A stretch of 64,000 bases of DNA from a phage, in sequence record OZ335959.1. One strand, given 5' to 3'. Positions 8,109 through 63,679 of this stretch are shown in pieces (positions within the stretch are counted from its first letter, which is position 1; every line of letters starts with the position of its first letter). Under the pieces are notes generated by a model that was not told the DNA's origin, did no database searches, and saw only the letters and a list, made by a program, of their open reading frames with translations. Position numbers and translations under genes: made by a program.

Positions 8109-8918
8109 ATGCTTAAAGAACAACTGATTGCTGAAGCGCAAAAAATTGATGCTTCCGTTGCTCTTGATAGTATTTTCGAATCAGTTAATATTTCTCCGGA
8201 AGCAAAAGAAACTTTCGGCACTGTATTCGAAGCTACCGTCAAGCAGCACGCCGTTAAATTAGCTGAATCTCATATCGCTAAAATTGCTGAAAAAGCAGAA
8301 GAAGAAGTAGAAAAAAATAAAGAAGAAGCCGAAGAAAAAGCTGAGAAGAAAATCGCTGAGCAAGCTTCTAAATTCATCGACCATCTTGCGAAAGAATGGC
8401 TCGCTGAAAATAAATTAGCAGTTGATAAAGGCATCAAAGCCGAACTGTTTGAATCCATGCTTGGTGGATTAAAAGAGCTCTTTGTTGAACACAACGTCGT
8501 TGTTCCAGAAGAATCAGTTGATGTTGTAGCTGAAATGGAAGAAGAGCTGCAAGAACATAAAGAAGAATCAGCTCGTCTGTTCGAAGAACTCAATATGCGC
8601 GACGCATATATCAATTATGTGCAGCGTGAAGTGGCATTGAGCGAAAGTACTAAAGATCTGACTGAGTCTCAAAAAGAAAAAGTCTCTGCTCTGGTCGAAG
8701 GTATGGATTATTCAGATGCATTCTCAAGTAAATTGAGTGCCATCGTAGAAATGGTGAAGAAGTCTAATAAAGATGAAAGCACTATTACTGAGGGTATAAA
8801 TACTCCTGATACTGAAGCAGCCGGACTGAATTTCGTCACTGAAGCTGTAGAAGATAAAACTGCACCTGGTGCAGAAGATATTGTAAGTGTATATGCGAAA
8901 GTCGCATCTCGTTTTTAA
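8109..8918 (+). CDS. 22: Prohead core scaffold protein, 269 aa
   Basis: Acidic coiled-coil-rich protein; length and position match T4 gp22. Confidence 0.9.
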   Translation: MLKEQLIAEAQKIDASVALDSIFESVNISPEAKETFGTVFEATVKQHAVKLAESHIAKIAEKAEEEVEKNKEEAEEKAEKKIAEQASKFIDHLAKEWLAENKLAVDKGIKAELFESMLGGLKELFVEHNVVVPEESVDVVAEMEEELQEHKEESARLFEELNMRDAYINYVQREVALSESTKDLTESQKEKVSALVEGMDYSDAFSSKLSAIVEMVKKSNKDESTITEGINTPDTEAAGLNFVTEAVEDKTAPGAEDIVSVYAKVASRF

Positions 8919-13482: not shown

Positions 13483-14901
13483 TTATGGATAGGTATAGAT
13501 GATACCAGTTTCTAAAGCAGTTTTATGAATGATGTATCCATTACGTGATTCTTGAACATCAACTTCTGGATAGTCTTTCATCATCTTCTGAAGAGTGTAA
13601 CGATGCAGGTAGTATTTACTATCTGGATCTTCAGTTTTCCAATCTTTACCTTCTTCGGTCATTTTTTGGATTTCATCCATAACCCACCAACCGCACCAGA
13701 TATAAGCTGAAGTACGATGTGGAAGAGGATGAACATAAGGCAATTCACCTTCTGGTTCCGGAGCAACTTTATCAGTTACCTGAACTTGGCCTGTTGCTTT
13801 AACTGTTTTACTATCATAGTCGGTTGCTGTAACAGTTGCAGTAACTTCAATAGTTTGACTTCCAATAGATGATGTATCAACGGTGTATACATTAGTTGAC
13901 CCTTCTACAGGAGAAGAATCTTTCTTCCATGAGTATTCGATTTGTGCTTCTTCTGGAGCATCCGTAACATTAGCCGTAAATGTAGCCGAAGCATCTTGCT
14001 GAACGTTAATAGAAGGAGGAGTCAATGTAACCTGTGGATTCATTGTTTTCTTATTAACTGTCAATGATACTTCATTAGAAGTAACTTCCTTTTCATTATA
14101 ATTTTCAGCAGTTACTTGAGCCACACACTTAACTGTTTTAGCTCCAACTGTGGTAGGAGTATAGTTAAATGTAGTAGTAGTTTCTCCATCGACCAGAGAA
14201 TCGTCAACATACCACTGATACGTGGCAGACGCTCCTGGTGGCTGTGAAGCCAAGGCAGCAGTAAATTGAATTGGGGTTCCAATTACTCCGGCAGCAGGAT
14301 TAGCAGGAGTTACGGCTAACGTAGTTGTTTGTGTCTTTTTATTAACAGTCAGTGATACTTCATTCGAAGTAACGCTTAGTGCATCATAATCTGTCGCAGT
14401 TACTTGAGCCACGCACTTAATTCTTTTTACGCCGCTTTCGGCAGGAGTGTAATTGAATGTAGCAGAAGTTGCTTCGCCCACAGGAGAATCATCTACATAC
14501 CATTGATAAGTAGCGTTTGCGCCCGATGGCTGCGAAGCTAAAGCGGCTGTAAATTGAACAGCTGTTCCAATTACTCCAGCGTCAGGGCTATTAGGAGTTA
14601 CAGCTACGGTGGTCGTTTGTGTCTTATTTTGAACTGTGATAGTTGTAGTAGCTTCTGCTGTTTCAGCTTCAGCTTCTGGAACTGTATTTGTTGCAACTAC
14701 TTTAATAGTCTTTTGACCGGCAGGCCCCTTTAATACATAATTAAAAGTTGCTTCAGCTCCATCTTGTGGAACATTATCTACGCTCCAAGCATAGGTAATA
14801 GTTCCACCTTCAGTTTGACCACTGGGTGCAGCAGTAAACTGCTTGGTTTCATCAATAACCCCTGTCGGTGTTTTAGGAGTTATATCAACTGTAAAAGTCA
14901 T
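13483..14901 (-). CDS. hoc: Highly immunogenic outer capsid protein Hoc with an extra tandem Ig-like domain, 472 aa
   Basis: Position between 24.3 and inh; internal 96-aa tandem protein repeat; T4 Hoc recalled as 376 aa. Confidence 0.85.
   Translation of the reverse strand: MTFTVDITPKTPTGVIDETKQFTAAPSGQTEGGTITYAWSVDNVPQDGAEATFNYVLKGPAGQKTIKVVATNTVPEAEAETAEATTTITVQNKTQTTTVAVTPNSPDAGVIGTAVQFTAALASQPSGANATYQWYVDDSPVGEATSATFNYTPAESGVKRIKCVAQVTATDYDALSVTSNEVSLTVNKKTQTTTLAVTPANPAAGVIGTPIQFTAALASQPPGASATYQWYVDDSLVDGETTTTFNYTPTTVGAKTVKCVAQVTAENYNEKEVTSNEVSLTVNKKTMNPQVTLTPPSINVQQDASATFTANVTDAPEEAQIEYSWKKDSSPVEGSTNVYTVDTSSIGSQTIEVTATVTATDYDSKTVKATGQVQVTDKVAPEPEGELPYVHPLPHRTSAYIWCGWWVMDEIQKMTEEGKDWKTEDPDSKYYLHRYTLQKMMKDYPEVDVQESRNGYIIHKTALETGIIYTYP
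14050..14625 (-). repeat. Diverged in-frame tandem duplication inside hoc, 2 x 288 bp (one Ig-like domain each)
   Basis: Protein residues about 93-188 and 189-284 are near-identical (KKTQTTT[VL]AVTP...SNEVSLTVN); DNA offset 288 bp. Confidence 0.8.
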
Positions 14902-25687: not shown

Positions 25688-25691
25688 CAAT

Positions 25692-25721
25692 GGGGACCTT
25701 TTGGTCCCCATATTTTTATTT
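25692..25721. terminator. Bidirectional terminator between gene 54 (+) and the alt.-3 ORF (-)
   Basis: GGGGACC-UUUU-GGUCCCC followed by ATATTTTTATTT. Confidence 0.65.
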
Positions 25722-26006
25722 ACGGAATGAAATAAAAGCAGCAACTGAAGCAACTAAACTGTCTTCAGTATAAACTTCAATTTTTACCGGAGCTTCTGAC
25801 TCGAATTTACCTGTTACTACACCTTGGAAAATGCTTTCAGTCTGTTCTGGCTTTGAAAAATTTTCAGAAGGAAAAATTCCGAACTTTTTATCTGTTCCAA
25901 AAATTTTGATAAATTCATCGTAAACCGCTTCATTAAAAGCGTTATCAGCAGGAATAACGCCTTCAACTACAAGTTCTTGACCTAAAAAGCGTAAAGAAGA
26001 TTTCAT
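25716..26006 (-). CDS. Hypothetical protein (T4 alt.-3 position), 96 aa
   Basis: ATG start with GAGGAA RBS; early promoter upstream. Confidence 0.6.
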   Translation of the reverse strand: MKSSLRFLGQELVVEGVIPADNAFNEAVYDEFIKIFGTDKKFGIFPSENFSKPEQTESIFQGVVTGKFESEAPVKIEVYTEDSLVASVAAFISFRK

Positions 26007-26037
26007 TTTGTGTTCCTCATGTTATGTCAGTAAGATT

Positions 26038-26067
26038 ATTATAACACAACACGATGGACTTGTAAAC
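26038..26067 (-). promoter_or_regulatory. T4 early-type promoter (GTTTAC, 18 nt, TATAAT) for the alt.-3 ORF; near-identical copy at 41542..41571
   Basis: -35 GTTTAC and -10 TATAAT on the minus strand; about 50 of 53 nt identical to the alc promoter and leader. Confidence 0.55.
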
Positions 26068-28124
26068 TACATCTTGAACTTTTTAGACATTCCATTGATG
26101 TTAACCAAAGAAGCCAAGATTTGAGAAACTTCGTTTTCCTCTTCTTTTGATTCTTCTACAAGGAATTGATTAAACCCAGCCATTGGACGAACTTCCCCAG
26201 TTTCCATTAGATGATCGCCATCATATACCGATTCTTCTAATTGTTCAGAAGGAGGAACGATTGTGCCTTCTATTAGATACTTGTTATAAGCAGTTTCTTT
26301 CATCATGTACGTGCTTACTTTATTAATCTTCAGCAAAATTCCACGCGGCAGAATAACTTCAGCTTCTGATGGAAATCCTGATAAATGACCTGGAACGATA
26401 ACTTTGATTCGCTCAGCCCCTTTAATTACCATACCTACGATAGTTTCATCATCTTCATTAGCATACGCAGAATGACTACCCATATGCATTAAATCTTCAG
26501 CATCAACAGAACCTTCTCCTTCACCAGAAAATACTGCACCTGAATCATCTAGAGCCATATAGTTTTTACCATGCTCACCGAAGATATTTGGTTTAAGCGA
26601 TGTTGATACGAAGTTCTTAAAATAGAACATTTTATTTTCAATATTATGACGTAAAGTTTTAAAAGTAACTTCTTGCCCACGATAAAGCGTAGTTCCTGGA
26701 GGAAGAACTGATCCTTTGGCGAATGCAGAATCCAGCGTCTCGATGTGTTTAATAGCTCGTTCCATGTATTCTTCACGGGTAGAATCTGGTTTACCCAAGA
26801 GGAACGAGTTCATTTCAACATATGAATCTGCACAATAATCTTCAATTACATCAGACTCAGCCTGAGTTAATCCTTTTGGAGTTACTTCGGTGCTTGCGTA
26901 TTCATATGCCTGAGCAGCAGATTCATTAATCAATTTATAAATGCCATTCATGACAAATCGAATAATAGCTGCCTTTTCGTCTGGTGTGGCTTTAGAACCT
27001 TTAACTAAATCATTGATAATTTTCTTAATAACATCAAAGCTATTAGAAATATTAATGTCAGCGAGATCGCTCAAAATTTTATCGGTTTTATAATCAAAAA
27101 ATTCTTTATTCTTTAAATATTCTTGAGAACCTTGATGTGTTATATCGCTCTGCAGTCTGATAGACGGATCACGTAAACGTGCATGGGCCAATGCAATATC
27201 ATTTCGGAAGCTTTCTAGTTCATAATCGTTAGATTTAAAACGAGAAGCACTTCTCATACCACCGATAGCTCCTTTGCCGAAGTTTGAACCAATCTGAATA
27301 ACGCCAGAGTTCATTGGTCCTTCTGCTTTATATACCGGAACTTTAGATTCAAACTCTTGATATTTCTTAGCAGCGAAGCTATCGCCCTGGAGTGAAGCAT
27401 CGACAGTAGAATATTGAGCTTGTGCTGCCAATCGACGACTAATTTTAGTTTTCTGAATAACAGCTTGATCCGTGCGCTTATCATTTTCTAAAGCAATAGA
27501 AGCGGCAACAGCAACAGCTTTAGGAACAGCATTACCTGTTTTAACATCTACATAAACATCACCAACCTTTGATTCAACTTTTGTGAATAACTCAGTTGAA
27601 ATAGGAGGTACACCTGGAATGTCTTCTAAATTGGCATTTTTACGGTAAACCATAATATATGCATACTTTTTATCATAATCCCAGATTTCCTTTAAAAGAA
27701 CATATCGACCTGCTCCTTTAGTACGTACTAAACGGTCAGCAATAACTTGCATTTGACGAGCTGCGCCATTTGTTTTACTTTTTAGTACGCGGAATAGGCA
27801 TGCATCAATTTTATACTGTTTCATTGTTTGAAGAGCAGTATCAAAAACGGCATTAATGACACCAATTGGATTTCCACCCAAGTTTTTAAGTTTAACTAAT
27901 GATAGTTTCTCATTAACACCTATCATTACGATATGCATCATTTTATCGCCTGGCTTAACGTTTTTATTTGTATCACCACCAGAGGTGTATGTACAAAATC
28001 TAAATCCAGGAAGCACGCTTTCTTCACCGGCTTGAATAGCAAAAATTTGAGGTATTTTATGCTTAGGATTTAAGTTAACAACCGGCGCCGAAGCGCCGTC
28101 AAATAATTCTGTAATAAGTTCCAT
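26067..28124 (-). CDS. Alt-like ADP-ribosyltransferase paralog, 685 aa
   Basis: N-terminus MELITELFDG shared with alt; C-terminal R/STS/E triad (YRGQ, FVSTSL, EAEVILPRG). Confidence 0.8.
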   Translation of the reverse strand: MELITELFDGASAPVVNLNPKHKIPQIFAIQAGEESVLPGFRFCTYTSGGDTNKNVKPGDKMMHIVMIGVNEKLSLVKLKNLGGNPIGVINAVFDTALQTMKQYKIDACLFRVLKSKTNGAARQMQVIADRLVRTKGAGRYVLLKEIWDYDKKYAYIMVYRKNANLEDIPGVPPISTELFTKVESKVGDVYVDVKTGNAVPKAVAVAASIALENDKRTDQAVIQKTKISRRLAAQAQYSTVDASLQGDSFAAKKYQEFESKVPVYKAEGPMNSGVIQIGSNFGKGAIGGMRSASRFKSNDYELESFRNDIALAHARLRDPSIRLQSDITHQGSQEYLKNKEFFDYKTDKILSDLADINISNSFDVIKKIINDLVKGSKATPDEKAAIIRFVMNGIYKLINESAAQAYEYASTEVTPKGLTQAESDVIEDYCADSYVEMNSFLLGKPDSTREEYMERAIKHIETLDSAFAKGSVLPPGTTLYRGQEVTFKTLRHNIENKMFYFKNFVSTSLKPNIFGEHGKNYMALDDSGAVFSGEGEGSVDAEDLMHMGSHSAYANEDDETIVGMVIKGAERIKVIVPGHLSGFPSEAEVILPRGILLKINKVSTYMMKETAYNKYLIEGTIVPPSEQLEESVYDGDHLMETGEVRPMAGFNQFLVEESKEEENEVSQILASLVNINGMSKKFKM

Positions 28125-28127
28125 GAT

Positions 28128-30221
28128 TTATCCTTGAACGAACTTGTAAGGCATGTTTGTAATATCTATGCAAGACGCAATAATTCCAAGAGATGATTCG
28201 ACTTTCTGTTTAACATTTGATGAAACAAATGATGCAAAATCAACTCTGTCTTCTATTTCAATATCACCTGTCATTGCAACTACTTCACCAGTTTCCATTA
28301 GACGGTCACCGTCATAAATTACTGATTCGGTGAGTTCTTCCGTAGTCATAACTTCAGCTTGAATGAGTTTTGTATTATTAGATGTTGTTCCGTCATTATT
28401 AGAAGCATCAGTTATTTTATTAACTTTGACCATCAATCCGCGTGGTAGAATAACTTCAGCTTCTGTTGCTATTCCGAGACTTCCTGGATATACAACATTA
28501 ACTTTATGAGCTCCATCAATTGCCCATCCTATTTGAACTTTAACGTATTCAGGATTTTCTTTATACGCTCTTATTTCATTTGGATTAATAGTTATTCCTT
28601 CTTCATTTTTATCAACTGTCAATTCATTACGAGCTTCTGGTTCTAAAAGACCAATACCAGCATGTGTAATTCCAAAACGTCCAAAAATGATAGGAGTTAA
28701 AGAAGTAGATACAAAATTTCTGAAATAGAACACTTTATTTTTAACTAGTGCTTCGTATATAGGAGCAGTCATACTTTGAGCACGATAAACTGTAATGCCT
28801 TCTGGTATACGGTCACCATTTTCAAAAGCTGAATCTAAGTTATTTATAGCAGATTCAATAGCCTTTTCATTCATTACATCATAGTTCTGAGGATTATAAC
28901 GTCCCAAAAGAAGATTATTGATGTCAGTATATCCTGAACCACAATACTCTCTAATGCCGCGCTTTTGTGATGGAGTATATTTAGAACCATCACGGGCAAT
29001 AGTAATATCAATCATTGGACCTGCACCAATTCCAGAAAAACTATAAATCATTCTTTTGAGGAATTTAGTTTTTGTTGCGTTCCAGGAATTTTTAGTTATT
29101 TCTTCCCAGACTTCATCTGGCTGTCCTTTACGTGTTTTATTATGTTTATCAAGCCAATTATCTTTATATTCTTCAAAGAGTTGATTAACGGCTGCTGCGT
29201 ATTTTTCTAAACATTTTATTGAAGTAGTTGGTTCATTTTTAATCGCATTAAGAATTACATCTTTAATTTTTTCAGAAACTTCATCAACTTCACTTTTTGA
29301 AAAGAATTTATAGTCATAGTGAAGTTCATCTGCAGTTCCTTCAGCAATAATTTTTGCTGCCTTAGTTTTAGAAGCTAATGAATTAATTCCAAGTTTCATT
29401 TCTTCTGCTTCGGGAATTAAAGGAGCGGTAGCAGGTTTATTGAAATTAGCTGCGGTAGATTCATACTTCTGGAATAATTCACTTTCAAATCTAGAAGATT
29501 CTAATGATTGACTTTGTGCAATTGCTCTACGGGAAATTTTAACTTTAACGATTACAGCTTGGTCAGAACGTTTATCGTTTTCTTGCGCAATAGATGCTGC
29601 AATGGCCTCATTTTTAGTTACTTGAGCTCCGGTATCTTTATTGATATAAACATCGCCGACCTTCGATTCAACTTTAGTAAAGAGCTCTGTACTAATTTCC
29701 GGAACTCCTGGAATGTCTTCTAATGATACATTTTTGCGATGTATAAGAATATATGCGTACTTTTTATCGTAATCCCAGAGTTCCTTAAGAAGGACGTATC
29801 TGCCACCTGAACGACTGCGGATAAGTCTATCAGCAATAAGTTGAATTTGACGAGCTTGACCAGCAGTTTTAGACTTAAGAATACGGAGCATACAGGCATC
29901 AATTTTATACTGACGCATCGTTTGCATTGCAACAGTAAAAACTGAATTGATGTAATTAATTGGGCTTGGACCGAGACCTTTTAATTTAGCAATTGAACCT
30001 TTAGCAGTTAATGTAAAAGGAACAATATGCATCATTTTATCGCCCATCTTTAAATCGCGATTAGTATCACCTCCAGATGTATAGGTACACAAACGAAAGC
30101 CTGGTTGTTCAATTGCGTCATCAACATGAACTGAAAAAATTTGCGGTATTTTCTTCTTTGGATTTAAGTTTGTAATCGGAAGAGTAGTATCTTCGTCAAA
30201 TAATTCTGTAATGAGTTCCAT
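28128..30221 (-). CDS. alt: Alt ADP-ribosyltransferase (capsid-packaged), about 697 aa
   Basis: Closely matches recalled T4 Alt ends; R/STS/E motifs; second ATG chosen for RBS spacing. Confidence 0.85.
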   Translation of the reverse strand: MELITELFDEDTTLPITNLNPKKKIPQIFSVHVDDAIEQPGFRLCTYTSGGDTNRDLKMGDKMMHIVPFTLTAKGSIAKLKGLGPSPINYINSVFTVAMQTMRQYKIDACMLRILKSKTAGQARQIQLIADRLIRSRSGGRYVLLKELWDYDKKYAYILIHRKNVSLEDIPGVPEISTELFTKVESKVGDVYINKDTGAQVTKNEAIAASIAQENDKRSDQAVIVKVKISRRAIAQSQSLESSRFESELFQKYESTAANFNKPATAPLIPEAEEMKLGINSLASKTKAAKIIAEGTADELHYDYKFFSKSEVDEVSEKIKDVILNAIKNEPTTSIKCLEKYAAAVNQLFEEYKDNWLDKHNKTRKGQPDEVWEEITKNSWNATKTKFLKRMIYSFSGIGAGPMIDITIARDGSKYTPSQKRGIREYCGSGYTDINNLLLGRYNPQNYDVMNEKAIESAINNLDSAFENGDRIPEGITVYRAQSMTAPIYEALVKNKVFYFRNFVSTSLTPIIFGRFGITHAGIGLLEPEARNELTVDKNEEGITINPNEIRAYKENPEYVKVQIGWAIDGAHKVNVVYPGSLGIATEAEVILPRGLMVKVNKITDASNNDGTTSNNTKLIQAEVMTTEELTESVIYDGDRLMETGEVVAMTGDIEIEDRVDFASFVSSNVKQKVESSLGIIASCIDITNMPYKFVQG

Positions 30222-30273
30222 CATATCCTCTCTAGTGTTTATTCTATTTATAAAATTAAAGGCCCGAAGGCCT

Positions 30274-33979: not shown

Positions 33980-34019
33980 AGTATTTTCCTCAGTAAGGGG
34001 CCGAAGCCCCTGTTTTATT

Positions 34020-34385
34020 TTAAATATCAAATTCGTTAAGAACTACATCAAAGATTGCTTCAAGATGCTCAGGTTTAGCTCTGTTACTTAGAATATGACG
34101 AATCCAAGTTTTAACCAGAAGCTTGCGATTAACGCCATTCCAGCAAGGATGAGTCCCTAAATCGCGTTGACGAAAATCATCATCCAAAGCGATTTTGAAG
34201 TTGGAACCTTCCATTGTGATTGAAACCGTGATGCCATTTTCAAATCGCATATAAACGTAGTTAGGAGTCATATACTGTTCAATTTCGCATACTGATCCAT
34301 TTTGATGTTTCCAAAGGCAAATAGTATCAATAGAACCTGCAATACCATTAGAAACATATTTACGTTCAAAGTTGATGTAGTTCAT
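34020..34385 (-). CDS. Hypothetical protein, 121 aa
   Basis: ATG start; early promoter with inverted repeat upstream. Confidence 0.55.
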   Translation of the reverse strand: MNYINFERKYVSNGIAGSIDTICLWKHQNGSVCEIEQYMTPNYVYMRFENGITVSITMEGSNFKIALDDDFRQRDLGTHPCWNGVNRKLLVKTWIRHILSNRAKPEHLEAIFDVVLNEFDI

Positions 34386-34453: not shown

Positions 34454-34786
34454 TTATTTTACTACTTTCCAGTGCTGCATGTCAAGTTTACCAACTTTTT
34501 TCATCTTCTCAATTAAGCGTTCGGCACGTTGGCGAGCTGTAACATAATACCATTCACCCAATTCATTTTGTTCAATTTTTCCAACGATTATTGTATTCAA
34601 TTCATAAATCCAACCAGTAAAGAAATTATGAACTTGAATTGTAAAGGTGAAATCTGTTCCCATACCTTCTGTTGTTTCTACTTCAATAATATCACCTTCA
34701 ACTGCCATTAAGAACCACATAGTTTCATCATATTTACCATTGAAGCATTTAGTTTTAACTGCAGCGTTCAGATTAATCGTTTTCAT
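34454..34786 (-). CDS. Hypothetical protein, 110 aa
   Basis: ATG start; early promoter upstream. Confidence 0.55.
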   Translation of the reverse strand: MKTINLNAAVKTKCFNGKYDETMWFLMAVEGDIIEVETTEGMGTDFTFTIQVHNFFTGWIYELNTIIVGKIEQNELGEWYYVTARQRAERLIEKMKKVGKLDMQHWKVVK

Positions 34787-34800
34787 TTTATTCTCCTTTG

Positions 34801-34843
34801 TTTGTGTAAGATAATACTATCACAAAGGAACTATACTGTAAAC
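34801..34843 (-). promoter_or_regulatory. Early promoter with inverted repeat TTTGTG/CACAAA around the -10
   Basis: GTTTAC at 34838-34843, TAGTAT at 34814-34819. Confidence 0.45.
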
Positions 34844-38208: not shown

Positions 38209-38247
38209 GGTAGAGCTATAATATCACAACTCTACCGTAAAGTAAAC
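38209..38247 (-). promoter_or_regulatory. Early promoter with inverted repeat GGTAGAG/CTCTACC around the -10
   Basis: GTTTAC at 38242-38247, TATTAT at 38218-38223. Confidence 0.5.
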
Positions 38248-40666: not shown

Positions 40667-41016
40667 TTAGAAAGGTCCTGGATGTCTTCTGCGAACTTGT
40701 TGAAGGAGTTGTTGATTTGTTTTTCAACCAATCCTGGCTTATGAGCCACCACATCCGCCTTCTTTGCGTCTTTGCGCAGTTTTTCATTTTCACGCTCAAT
40801 AGCAGCAATTGCCTCACGATTTTTATTATTCATCGCATCAATATAATTATACTGAATTCGCAAATTATTTAATGCTAAAGCGTTTTCATTGGCCGTTTTT
40901 GTAATTTCTACAACAGACGTTTCTAATCTTTCAATTTTATTTTTTAAAATTAAAGAAGTTCCGCCCAATGCAATTACAATTAATAACAAGCCCGTTGTCG
41001 TATTACTTAATTGCAT
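40663..41016 (-). CDS. Putative inner-membrane spanin, 117 aa
   Basis: N-terminal transmembrane helix GLLLIVIALGGTSLIL followed by coiled-coil-like segment. Confidence 0.65.
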   Translation of the reverse strand: MQLSNTTTGLLLIVIALGGTSLILKNKIERLETSVVEITKTANENALALNNLRIQYNYIDAMNNKNREAIAAIERENEKLRKDAKKADVVAHKPGLVEKQINNSFNKFAEDIQDLSK

Positions 41017-41513
41017 AAAGTTTTAATAACCTCTACAATATCGTCTTGAGAAAGACCGTTAATTAAAATATGATGTTCAGCCGGAGATTTAGAAATTTTA
41101 AAGCATGCCTCAACATCTTCTGCCATATCCGACGCGCTACGATTTGGATTACTAATTCCAAGACGATGTTTTCCCGTCAAAGGATTAACGATTATATAGC
41201 ATTTACAGTTGTTGATATGAACATTAGGTTGAGTCTGATTAATGAACACATCACAATCATATTTCGCAAGCTGATTTTCTAAAAAGACTTTCATCTCCTC
41301 AACCGCATCAGGAAGCATATCACGGGCTTGCTCAAGACGACGATTTCGATATTCTTTAATGGTCGTTTTCCGCTTGACTTGTTTAGCTAAATCTTTCTTA
41401 AGATCGGTGATATATCCAACTCGACGATTTCCTTTAAATACAGAAATCCCATCTGTAGTATCACCGTATGCTTCAACGACCATCTCAGTAGTAATAAGCT
41501 GCAAATCCATCAT
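41007..41513 (-). CDS. alc: Probable Alc (host transcription shutoff), 168 aa
   Basis: Synteny between spanins and rnlA; size as T4 Alc. Confidence 0.6.
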   Translation of the reverse strand: MMDLQLITTEMVVEAYGDTTDGISVFKGNRRVGYITDLKKDLAKQVKRKTTIKEYRNRRLEQARDMLPDAVEEMKVFLENQLAKYDCDVFINQTQPNVHINNCKCYIIVNPLTGKHRLGISNPNRSASDMAEDVEACFKISKSPAEHHILINGLSQDDIVEVIKTLCN

Positions 41514-41541
41514 AAAGTCCTCATGTTATGTCAGTAAGACT

Positions 41542-41571
41542 ACTATAACACAACACGAGGGACTTGTAAAC
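41542..41571 (-). promoter_or_regulatory. T4 early-type promoter (GTTTAC, 18 nt, TATAGT) for alc
   Basis: Near-identical to 26038..26067, including the leader. Confidence 0.55.
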
Positions 41572-41574
41572 AGC

Positions 41575-42720
<1,146 letters not shown>

Positions 42721-49740: not shown

Positions 49741-49777
49741 TAGGGTAATAGTATCACACTACTACCCTACTGTAAAC
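49741..49777 (-). promoter_or_regulatory. Early promoter with inverted repeat TAGGGTA/TACCCTA around the -10
   Basis: GTTTAC at 49772-49777, TACTAT at 49748-49753. Confidence 0.5.
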
Positions 49778-53752: not shown

Positions 53753-53790
53753 AGATTTCTATTATATACTATCCAAATCTTAAAGTAAAC
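53753..53790 (-). promoter_or_regulatory. Early promoter for rnh with inverted repeat AGATTT/AAATCT around the -10
   Basis: GTTTAC at 53785-53790, TATAAT at 53761-53766. Confidence 0.45.

Positions 53791-59556: not shown

Positions 59557-63679
<4,123 letters not shown>

Follow-up and report, generated by a model that had tools for sequence, protein, structure and literature searches.

The stretch analyzed here, hereafter the window, comprises 64,000 nucleotides (nt) of sequence record OZ335959.1 and belongs to a T4-like phage of the genus Tequatrovirus (~98% identity over 4 kb to EPIMAM01 and ime09). Two genes on its minus strand, alt.-3 and alc, are preceded by near-identical cassettes that carry an early promoter, a leader, and a Shine-Dalgarno (SD) sequence. 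Copy A (26014-26067) lies between the stop codon of the second of two tandem alt genes (26067-28124 and 28128-30224) and alt.-3 (25716-26006, 96 amino acids [aa]), the gene that it serves. Copy B (41518-41571) lies between rnlA (41575-42699) and alc (41007-41510), and serves alc, which encodes a host transcription inhibitor 98% identical to T4 Alc. All these genes and both cassettes are on the minus strand. The TAG stop of the second alt gene shares the G of the copy A GTTTAC, and the TAA of rnlA (41575-41577) stands 3 nt 5′ of copy B; the alt genes and rnlA are candidate sources of read-through RNA for copies A and B, respectively. Sequence, folding predictions, and comparative analysis suggest that each cassette is an early promoter embedded in a hairpin that would mask the ribosome-binding site (RBS) on transcripts from upstream.

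Alignment of the two stretches revealed a direct repeat of 54 nt, identical at 51 positions. The flanks are unrelated, and the limits of identity are sharp: the G of GTTTAC at the 5′ end and the last base of GAGGA at the 3′ end. Similarity is not limited to the -35 and -10 hexamers; it runs through all 17 nt of the spacer, the initial transcribed region, and the leader down to the SD. The copies differ at cassette positions 13 (C/A), 29 (G/A; TATAGT versus TATAAT), and 32 (G/A), which are located in the bulge and the apical region of the hairpin described below. A degenerate 54-mer search of the window at up to three mismatches returned exactly these two sites, with an expectation of 0.00 from 100 dinucleotide shuffles, and an independent repeat search recovered the same pair as family D8. 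The repeat pair is real and far beyond chance. A preliminary description of the window had reported a near-identical cassette at the two loci and had named both downstream genes correctly; the sites stand, and the limits it gave (26012-26067 and 41519-41571, ~50 of 53 nt) were off by 1-2 nt.

Copy A contains TTTACA-17-TATAAT, which matches the sigma-70 consensus at 11 of 12 positions, and copy B contains TTTACA-17-TATAGT, which matches at 10 of 12; both have a TG before the -10 box (extended -10). A promoter consensus scan placed the -35 boxes at 26061-26066 and 41565-41570. The -10 boxes, identified by the scan and by sequence, are at 26038-26043, with TGT directly before it, and at 41542-41547. 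From the -10 positions, start sites are predicted at an A near 26031 in copy A, 7 nt past the -10 box, and at an A near 41535 in copy B. Transcripts starting ~7 nt past the -10 box would have a leader of ~13 nt, ACUGACAUAACAUGAGGA, followed by the SD GAGGA; the leader as written in the preliminary description matches this predicted start. The copy A SD (26014-26018) is 7 nt before the alt.-3 ATG (26004-26006). The copy B SD (41518-41522) is followed by ATGs at 41511-41513 and 41508-41510, and the alc start annotated in T4 is the second of these, 7 nt from the SD. Copy B is preceded by TTTTTTGAAAAATTATAAAAAATTTAT, about 20-45 nt upstream, and copy A by CTAAAAAGTTCAAGATGTA, both inside coding sequence. 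By its -35 and extended -10 boxes, each copy is almost certainly a strong sigma-70 early promoter of the T4 type. Both leaders also include an AUG (in CAUGAGGA; 26019-26021 and 41523-41525), which opens a mini-open reading frame (mini-ORF) of 4-5 codons, AUGAGGA...UGA, with no preceding SD. Its UGA stop is shared with the alt.-3 start (AUGA) or with the first alc AUG.

The cassette is at the same time an imperfect palindrome. In folding, the spacer AAGUCC-C-UCGUGUUGUGUU is complementary to the leader and SD, GACAUAACAUGA-GGACUU, and the -10 box and predicted start site occupy the apical part of the predicted hairpin. The copy A hairpin (26014-26058) pairs a 5′ arm from the spacer, UCC.AUCGUGUUGUGUUAU, with a 3′ arm from the leader and SD, ..GACAUAACAUGAGGA. 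The copy B hairpin (41515-41565) has 22 bp and one bulge (AAGUCC.UCGUGUUGUGUU..AGUA / UACUGACAUAACAUGAGGACUU), and its stem runs 3 nt past the repeat into alc-specific sequence. Scored against 200 shuffles, the alc hairpin has a predicted energy of -24.4 kcal/mol both in the window (z score, -5.7) and in T4 (z score, -6.2), and the alt.-3 hairpin -17.8 kcal/mol in the window (z score, -3.7) and -23.0 kcal/mol in T4 (z score, -5.0). Rfam returned 0 matches at the gathering score, and its sole weak match was a chance microRNA (E value, 0.78).

Read-through RNA was modelled from 150 nt upstream, and own-promoter RNA from the predicted start site. The mean unpaired probability of the SD GAGGA in read-through RNA is predicted to be 0.02-0.03 for both copies; in own-promoter RNA it is predicted to be 0.76 for alc and 0.17 for alt.-3. 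Opening of the RBS is predicted to cost 17.9 kcal/mol in read-through RNA versus 4.4 kcal/mol in own-promoter RNA at alc, and 11.7 versus 2.1 kcal/mol at alt.-3. No significant structure was found on folding the own-promoter leaders of the two copies.

These predictions are consistent with a translational gate built into the promoter. The promoter-spacer DNA would double as the code for an anti-SD strand, which would make the cassette a unit of ~60 nt with two functions. Polymerase arriving from rnlA (for alc) or from the alt genes (for alt.-3) would transcribe the entire cassette, and this read-through RNA would fold into a 17-22-bp hairpin that buries the SD and leaves alc or alt.-3 untranslated. 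Own-promoter RNA would start in the apical part, lack the 5′ arm, and keep a free SD, and the gene would be translated. Early promoters fall silent a few minutes into infection, and their shut-off would confine alc and alt.-3 translation to the immediate-early period. The full mechanism, with duplication of the cassette from alc to alt.-3, is given a probability of about 0.6.

A terminator scan of both copies found no terminator-like site and no U-tract after the stem, and a function of the hairpin as an intrinsic terminator was rejected on these grounds. A 3′ arm that is the SD itself, without a U-tract, points to translational masking instead. Late read-through RNA into copy A has a likely source in the T4 late-promoter motif TATAAATA, which is found on the minus strand at 30245-30252, 21 nt 5′ of the first alt ATG. 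Late alt RNA from this putative promoter, directly upstream of alt, should cross both alt genes into copy A. A motif search of the window found TATAAATA in neither cassette. Downstream, a perfect 9-bp G/C-rich hairpin with terminator-like features on both strands (ATGGGGACC-TTTT-GGTCCCCAT, 25690-25711) lies between the convergent genes 54 and alt.-3. By its sequence it should close the alt.-3 transcription unit against gene 54 and form the end point of late alt RNA.

The regions upstream of alc were compared in 12 annotated phages of other genera and 45 IMG/VR loci. The distance from GTTTAC to ATG is 60-64 nt in all sampled. The layout of GTTTACA, anti-SD spacer arm, -10 box in the loop, and SD arm is kept at alc with unrelated stem sequences in Karam-, Gelderland-, Jiaoda-, Braga-, Dhaka-, Kanagawa-, Marfa-, and Winklervirus, among others. 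Most Tevenvirinae genera have it, and in total the hairpin architecture is found in 11 sequence groups of other T4-like genera, in which the stem has been replaced completely by compensatory changes. The 5′ and 3′ arms are, respectively, TCTCCATTTGGTTGTGT and ACACTAACCAAATGGAGA in Karamvirus, TCCTCATCAG and CTGATGAGGA in Jiaodavirus, ACCTCTCATTTT and AAAATGAGAGGT in Bragavirus, CCTCGTTTGTT and AACAAACGAGG in Marfavirus, and TCCTCATTTCGTT and AACGAAATGAGGA in Winklervirus.

RNAalifold on a plain MAFFT alignment of 27 alc cassettes detected no structure because the 3′ arms are out of register, and an alignment-free swap test and a covariance model were used instead. In the swap test, native spacer-leader duplexes averaged -17.1 kcal/mol versus -8.5 kcal/mol for duplexes between sequence groups, and none of 20,000 permutations was as low. 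The covariance model, built from Karam-, Gelderland-, Kanagawa-, and Winklervirus cassettes with no Tequatrovirus included, matched both window copies at 26.6-26.9 bits (E value, ~0.003). In the alignment made with this model, which covers 24 distinct alc cassettes, standard pairs fill 93.5% of cells. Column shuffles give 74%, with none of 500 as high as the real alignment, and sliding the partner by 1-3 columns gives 33-48%; 12 of 17 pairs show compensatory double changes. Within Tequatrovirus, substitutions in the alc 5′ arm are pair-compatible (G>A opposite U, C>U opposite G). In one Tequatrovirus alt.-3 variant (L076, L010) the 5′ arm is re-tuned to GUUCCUUAUGU (GUUCC), which pairs with its own flank GGAAC. 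That a hairpin is what selection has kept at alc is highly probable.

Not every relative follows this layout. At alc of Gaprivervirus and of one unassigned contig, the region around the -35 box forms a G/C-rich terminator-like hairpin instead; in Gaprivervirus the box lies in the loop of this hairpin, AAGGGGTGTACAAGCCCCTTCTTTCT. The first alc codons are the partner of the 5′ arm in the Aeromonas phage Tulanevirus ZHF and related contigs.

Several points weigh against a translational gate. In Tegunavirus and one Kanagawavirus the alc hairpin stops just 5′ of the SD, so that there is no masking, and Mosigvirus (RB69) has a spacer mini-hairpin only. At alt.-3, SD masking is absent from every genus but Tequatrovirus, and the gate is thus not essential there; the weakest hairpin is also an alt.-3 copy, that of the window (-17.8 kcal/mol). 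The covariance-model alignment is fitted to structure and biased towards it. The covariation proves that the palindrome is under selection, but not whether this acts at the level of RNA or DNA. Sense RNA is the stabler strand in 14 of 27 cassettes across genera (Wilcoxon p, ~0.99). Since sense and antisense strands fold about equally well, G-U pairs give no pointer to the mRNA strand. Tequatrovirus is the exception: its sense strand has three G-U pairs and is 9.3 kcal/mol stabler than the antisense. The -10 position is the basis for the predicted start site, and folding for the predicted translational block; the timing is an expectation of the same kind. In published time-resolved omics (PMC9697503 supplement), alc, alt.-3, and regB are early at both the RNA and the protein level, and rnlA is early as RNA and late as protein; these classes are compatible with the gate but do not discriminate among explanations.

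Outside Tequatrovirus, the alt.-3 promoter consists of GTTTACA, a short hairpin confined to the spacer (e.g., CACCACAAGGATGTGG), and the -10 box, followed by a free leader with an unmasked SD that ends in AACATGAGGA. Other genera thus have the hairpin type at alc and a different cassette at alt.-3, which suggests that the hairpin is ancestral at alc and was brought in at alt.-3. The two copies are evidently near-identical by descent and not by convergence. In the simplest history, which is quite probable, the alt.-3 copy arose by ectopic conversion by the alc cassette in an ancestor of Tequatrovirus; the direction, alc to alt.-3, is inferred from this distribution. The proposed conversion ends at motifs that both cassettes already had, GTTTACA and CATGAGGA. 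A second case is found in Dhakavirus contig 2706795356, in which the alc and alt.-3 cassettes have 27 nt of the leader and the ATG in common (ACCTTACACAAACATGAGGAGAACATTATG, 30 nt); in its relatives, the alt.-3 cassette is identical but the alc leader differs. This pattern shows an apparent second, independent exchange in one Dhakavirus lineage, of the leader half and from alt.-3 to alc.

Exchanges were assessed by the longest common substring, because hexamers and SD are common to all early cassettes and global identity between alc and alt.-3 cassettes (background, 0.68) discriminates poorly. The longest string shared by alc and alt.-3 within a genome is 32 nt in T4 and 27 nt in this Dhakavirus, and between genera at most 12 nt. 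Conversions in Mosigvirus and Marfavirus are not claimed, as their shared strings of 10 and 12 nt are about the between-genus maximum of 12 nt.

The gene orders rnlA-alc-pseT.3 and alt-alt.-3-54 are syntenic across the genera sampled, and no cassette-bounded gene shuffling or change in gene content was found among them. The preliminary description had placed the cassettes between variable genes and proposed a comparison of related phages for cassette-bounded rearrangements; the flanking genes are conserved, and that part is not borne out. Its proposal that the cassettes could be recombination substrates gains indirect support from the alt.-3 conversion and the Dhakavirus exchange, with no gene shuffling to accompany them. 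A crossover between the direct copies would excise ~15.5 kb including the ligase gene 30 and gene 31, and such an excision is unlikely to be viable. An extra small ORF exactly at the rnlA/alc junction is found in Gaprivervirus (L014:557-790, VR7; annotated as Alc-like) and Acinetobacter phage Acj9 (L022:518-739) only.

The cassette was also compared with three known systems. Promoter early stem-loop (PeSL) elements are defined by a sigma-70-type early promoter after an upstream stop codon, a stem-loop, and an SD and start codon at the 3′ end, and stem-loops that overlap the -10 box are one published subclass (PMC2839356, PMC4122927). The preliminary description had matched the cassettes to these elements while overlooking the stem-loop that overlaps the promoter, which is the defining part of a PeSL. 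The match holds for the anatomy, including an early promoter after a stop codon, a promoter-overlapping stem-loop, and an SD and ATG at the 3′ end. It holds also for the presence of near-identical copies within a genome with evidence of sequence exchange between them, and the PST/T4 consensus TTTACW-N17-TAYWAT fits both window copies. It fails for the neighbors, which are conserved and not hyperplastic, with no documented gene shuffling or mini-circle for this pair, and for the terminator signature. Published PeSL stem-loops are short, often G/C-rich, and tested or interpreted as terminators or attenuators, and those of PST/T4 are described just upstream of the promoter. In contrast, the present stem has 17-22 bp, is A/U-rich, lacks a U-tract, reaches from the spacer to the SD, and is predicted to mask the RBS. 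Translation is not discussed by Arbiol et al. in 2010, where the word is absent (PMC2839356).

A mechanistic parallel is textbook knowledge for the T4 genes e, soc, 49, and I-TevI, where a helix sequesters the SD and transcripts from a promoter in its 5′ strand escape it (PMC3014915). Here too the SD is predicted to be sequestered in a helix of upstream-initiated RNA. A proximal promoter with the predicted start site would likewise yield transcripts missing the inhibitory 5′ strand, and the structure is kept in related phages. The inner promoters of those genes are late (gp55), and the hairpin prevents premature early translation of a late protein, whereas the inner promoter here is an early sigma-70 promoter and the predicted effect is inverted in time. 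Neither alc nor alt.-3 is among the examples of that review (PMC3014915); an earlier description of an alc hairpin in the older T4 literature is possible. Finally, T4 early promoters belong to the 'uber' UP/-35/TGn/-10 class, with extra consensus beyond the polymerase contacts (Hinton 2010, PMC2988021). The cassettes have the same -35 GTTTAC(A), TGn, and -10 elements and likewise lie directly before an early gene. They differ in that the alc/alt.-3 pair is far more alike and the shared part reaches down the leader to the SD.

Four other explanations were weighed against an early promoter embedded in an RBS-masking hairpin. As a classical PeSL, the stem-loop would be a terminator or attenuator that insulates the downstream gene, and the cassette a homology linker for recombination of neighboring genes. 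Termination and mini-circles arising by recombination between PeSLs have been demonstrated in RB49 and phi1 (PMC2839356), and the anatomy here fits the published definition. The movement of cassette sequence between the two loci at least twice, the other near-identical T4 cassette families (49/54, 46/54, and 44/54), and the extra ORFs at the rnlA/alc junction of Gaprivervirus and Acj9 agree with this explanation. It is nonetheless unlikely, given that neither copy has a U-tract or terminator-like site, that in most genera the SD forms the 3′ arm, a feature that a terminator could do without, and that the flanking genes are syntenic. The T4 alt deletion is not bounded by the repeat, and a crossover would remove ~15.5 kb with genes 30 and 31. 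A role in RNA processing or stability, with the duplex as an RNase III-type site or a protective 3′ hairpin for rnlA and alt and the SD pairing incidental, is slightly less likely again. A stem of 17-22 bp directly after the upstream stop codon is enough for a double-strand-specific nuclease, and covariation places the duplex under selection. However, the most constant stem parts across genera are the SD arm and the anti-SD (UCCUC or UCUCC) after the -35 box, and class II hairpins of T4 enclose the -10 box without reaching the SD, so that the geometry does not force SD inclusion.

The palindrome might instead act in DNA rather than mRNA, as a cruciform or hairpin that affects promoter opening, replication, or the initiation of recombination. 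This explanation expects the two strands to fold about equally well, as they do across genera, and Arbiol et al. speculated that PeSL stem-loops are targets of a DNA-binding recombination protein (PMC2839356). In Tequatrovirus, though, the three G-U pairs and the 9.3-kcal/mol advantage of sense RNA speak for the transcript, and structure in DNA would give no reason for the systematic use of the SD as an arm. Imperfect stems with loops of 12-20 nt are poorly extruded as cruciforms, which also counts against action in DNA, and this explanation is improbable. Least credible is a neutral leftover, in which a recently duplicated promoter serves transcription initiation only and the palindrome is fortuitous. 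Tequatrovirus genomes are closely related, and conservation within the genus says little. The retention of the alc hairpin through complete sequence turnover in 11 sequence groups of other genera already contradicts a fortuitous palindrome, and the expectation of a chance 54-nt match is 0.00.

The pair is a constant feature of close relatives. In T4 (NC_000866), both copies are at the same two places and are 53/54 identical. A blastn search of the 54-mer against 50,697 phage records found 999 places in 500 records, all T4-like isolates. This is about two per genome, with 2 places in every row among the matches listed, and a multicopy or mobile cassette within genomes was rejected on that count. 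Pattern scans for the cassette returned 10 stretches from IMG/VR and 8 from metagenome contigs, too few for a population test of concerted evolution in Tequatrovirus. Among 32 early-promoter-type cassettes in the scanned T4 regions, alc and alt.-3 are the most similar pair; other pairs reach 49/54, 46/54, and 44/54, and over all 496 pairs the median is 26/54 (95th percentile, 36/54). Near-identity of promoter and leader cassettes is a general T4 trait, of which alc/alt.-3 is the extreme case. A second T4 early-promoter leader family (TACTAT-ACAACTATCAACTACTGATACGGATTTGGAGAATAAAATG) occurs at at least five loci, with pairs up to 49/54 (T4 27080, 55384, 70696, 163673, and 167086; in L106, L107, and L108).

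The GTTTAC-N18-TAnnnT family, to which both copies belong, has 9 members in the window versus 1.5 expected. A scan of T4 for GTTTAC-N18-TAnnnT with an SD and ATG gave 34 candidates in three hairpin groups. The predicted SD-masking group comprises alc, alt.-3, regB, motB.2, nrdC.8, and ndd.4, and more weakly 30.8, with spacer-leader duplexes of -20 to -23 kcal/mol (z scores, about -5 to -6). Hairpins of the second group enclose the -10 box only (e.g., T4 20612, 57990, 65799, and 73939), and the third has spacer mini-hairpins (2458, 50973, and 167086). The covariance model from other genera matched the T4 regB promoter at 40 bits, its best T4 match, and the motB.2 promoter at 30 bits. The early promoters with the predicted SD-masking design are at T4 62740-62797 (L107:12841-12898) for regB, T4 8163-8218 (L106:8163-8218) for motB.2, T4 53943 for nrdC.8, and T4 166807 for ndd.4. 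In four more early-promoter cassettes on the minus strand of the window, the spacer is complementary to the bases that closely follow the -10 box (34786-34843, 38218-38247, 49748-49777, and 53761-53790). In the first (34843), before 30.8, TCCTTTG pairs with the SD region CAAAGGA, and the covariance model scores 22.7 bits; the hairpins of the other three enclose the -10 box only.

The two tandem alt genes of the window, which encode ADP-ribosyltransferases, are both full length (685 and 698 aa) and 72-78% identical in places. The central part of the first is only ~72% identical to T4, which makes this gene a mosaic. In T4, the second alt gene is reduced to the fragments alt.-1 and alt.-2 by a deletion of ~1.69 kb that corresponds to window 26087-27776. 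This deletion is the one indel near the cassettes. One of its ends is 11-20 nt upstream of the repeat and the other has no cassette; a cassette-mediated origin was rejected, as the junction is outside the repeat. Elsewhere in the window, a G/C-rich hairpin (GGGGCCGAAGCCCC) flanked by A/T runs occurs at 33995-34024 and 62860-62889, 29 kb apart and in opposite orientation, and the two are probably copies of a terminator. A tandem duplication of 288 nt, 74% identical, is found in a coding region of the plus strand (14044-14619).

T4 is a reference system for timed gene expression, and the end of immediate-early protein synthesis is only partly understood. Known contributors are promoter shut-off and RegB cleavage (PMC3014915). 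The recurrence of the predicted design raises a tentative idea, held with less confidence than the mechanism at alc and alt.-3: a general immediate-early-only translational gate in T4-like phages, undescribed so far and spreading by ectopic conversion. For annotation, the cassette illustrates that a 'duplicated promoter' can be a composite RNA and DNA element, and in phage engineering such a promoter moved without its leader would have altered translational control. If the proposed mechanism is true, the need to keep the two arms complementary would explain the inheritance and exchange of promoter, leader, and SD as one unit, and PeSL-type stem-loops would gain a second function besides termination. 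T4-like phages would then possess a simple cis-acting off-switch that silences all transcripts but those from a gene's own early promoter, with candidate targets that include Alc, which shuts off host transcription, and RegB.

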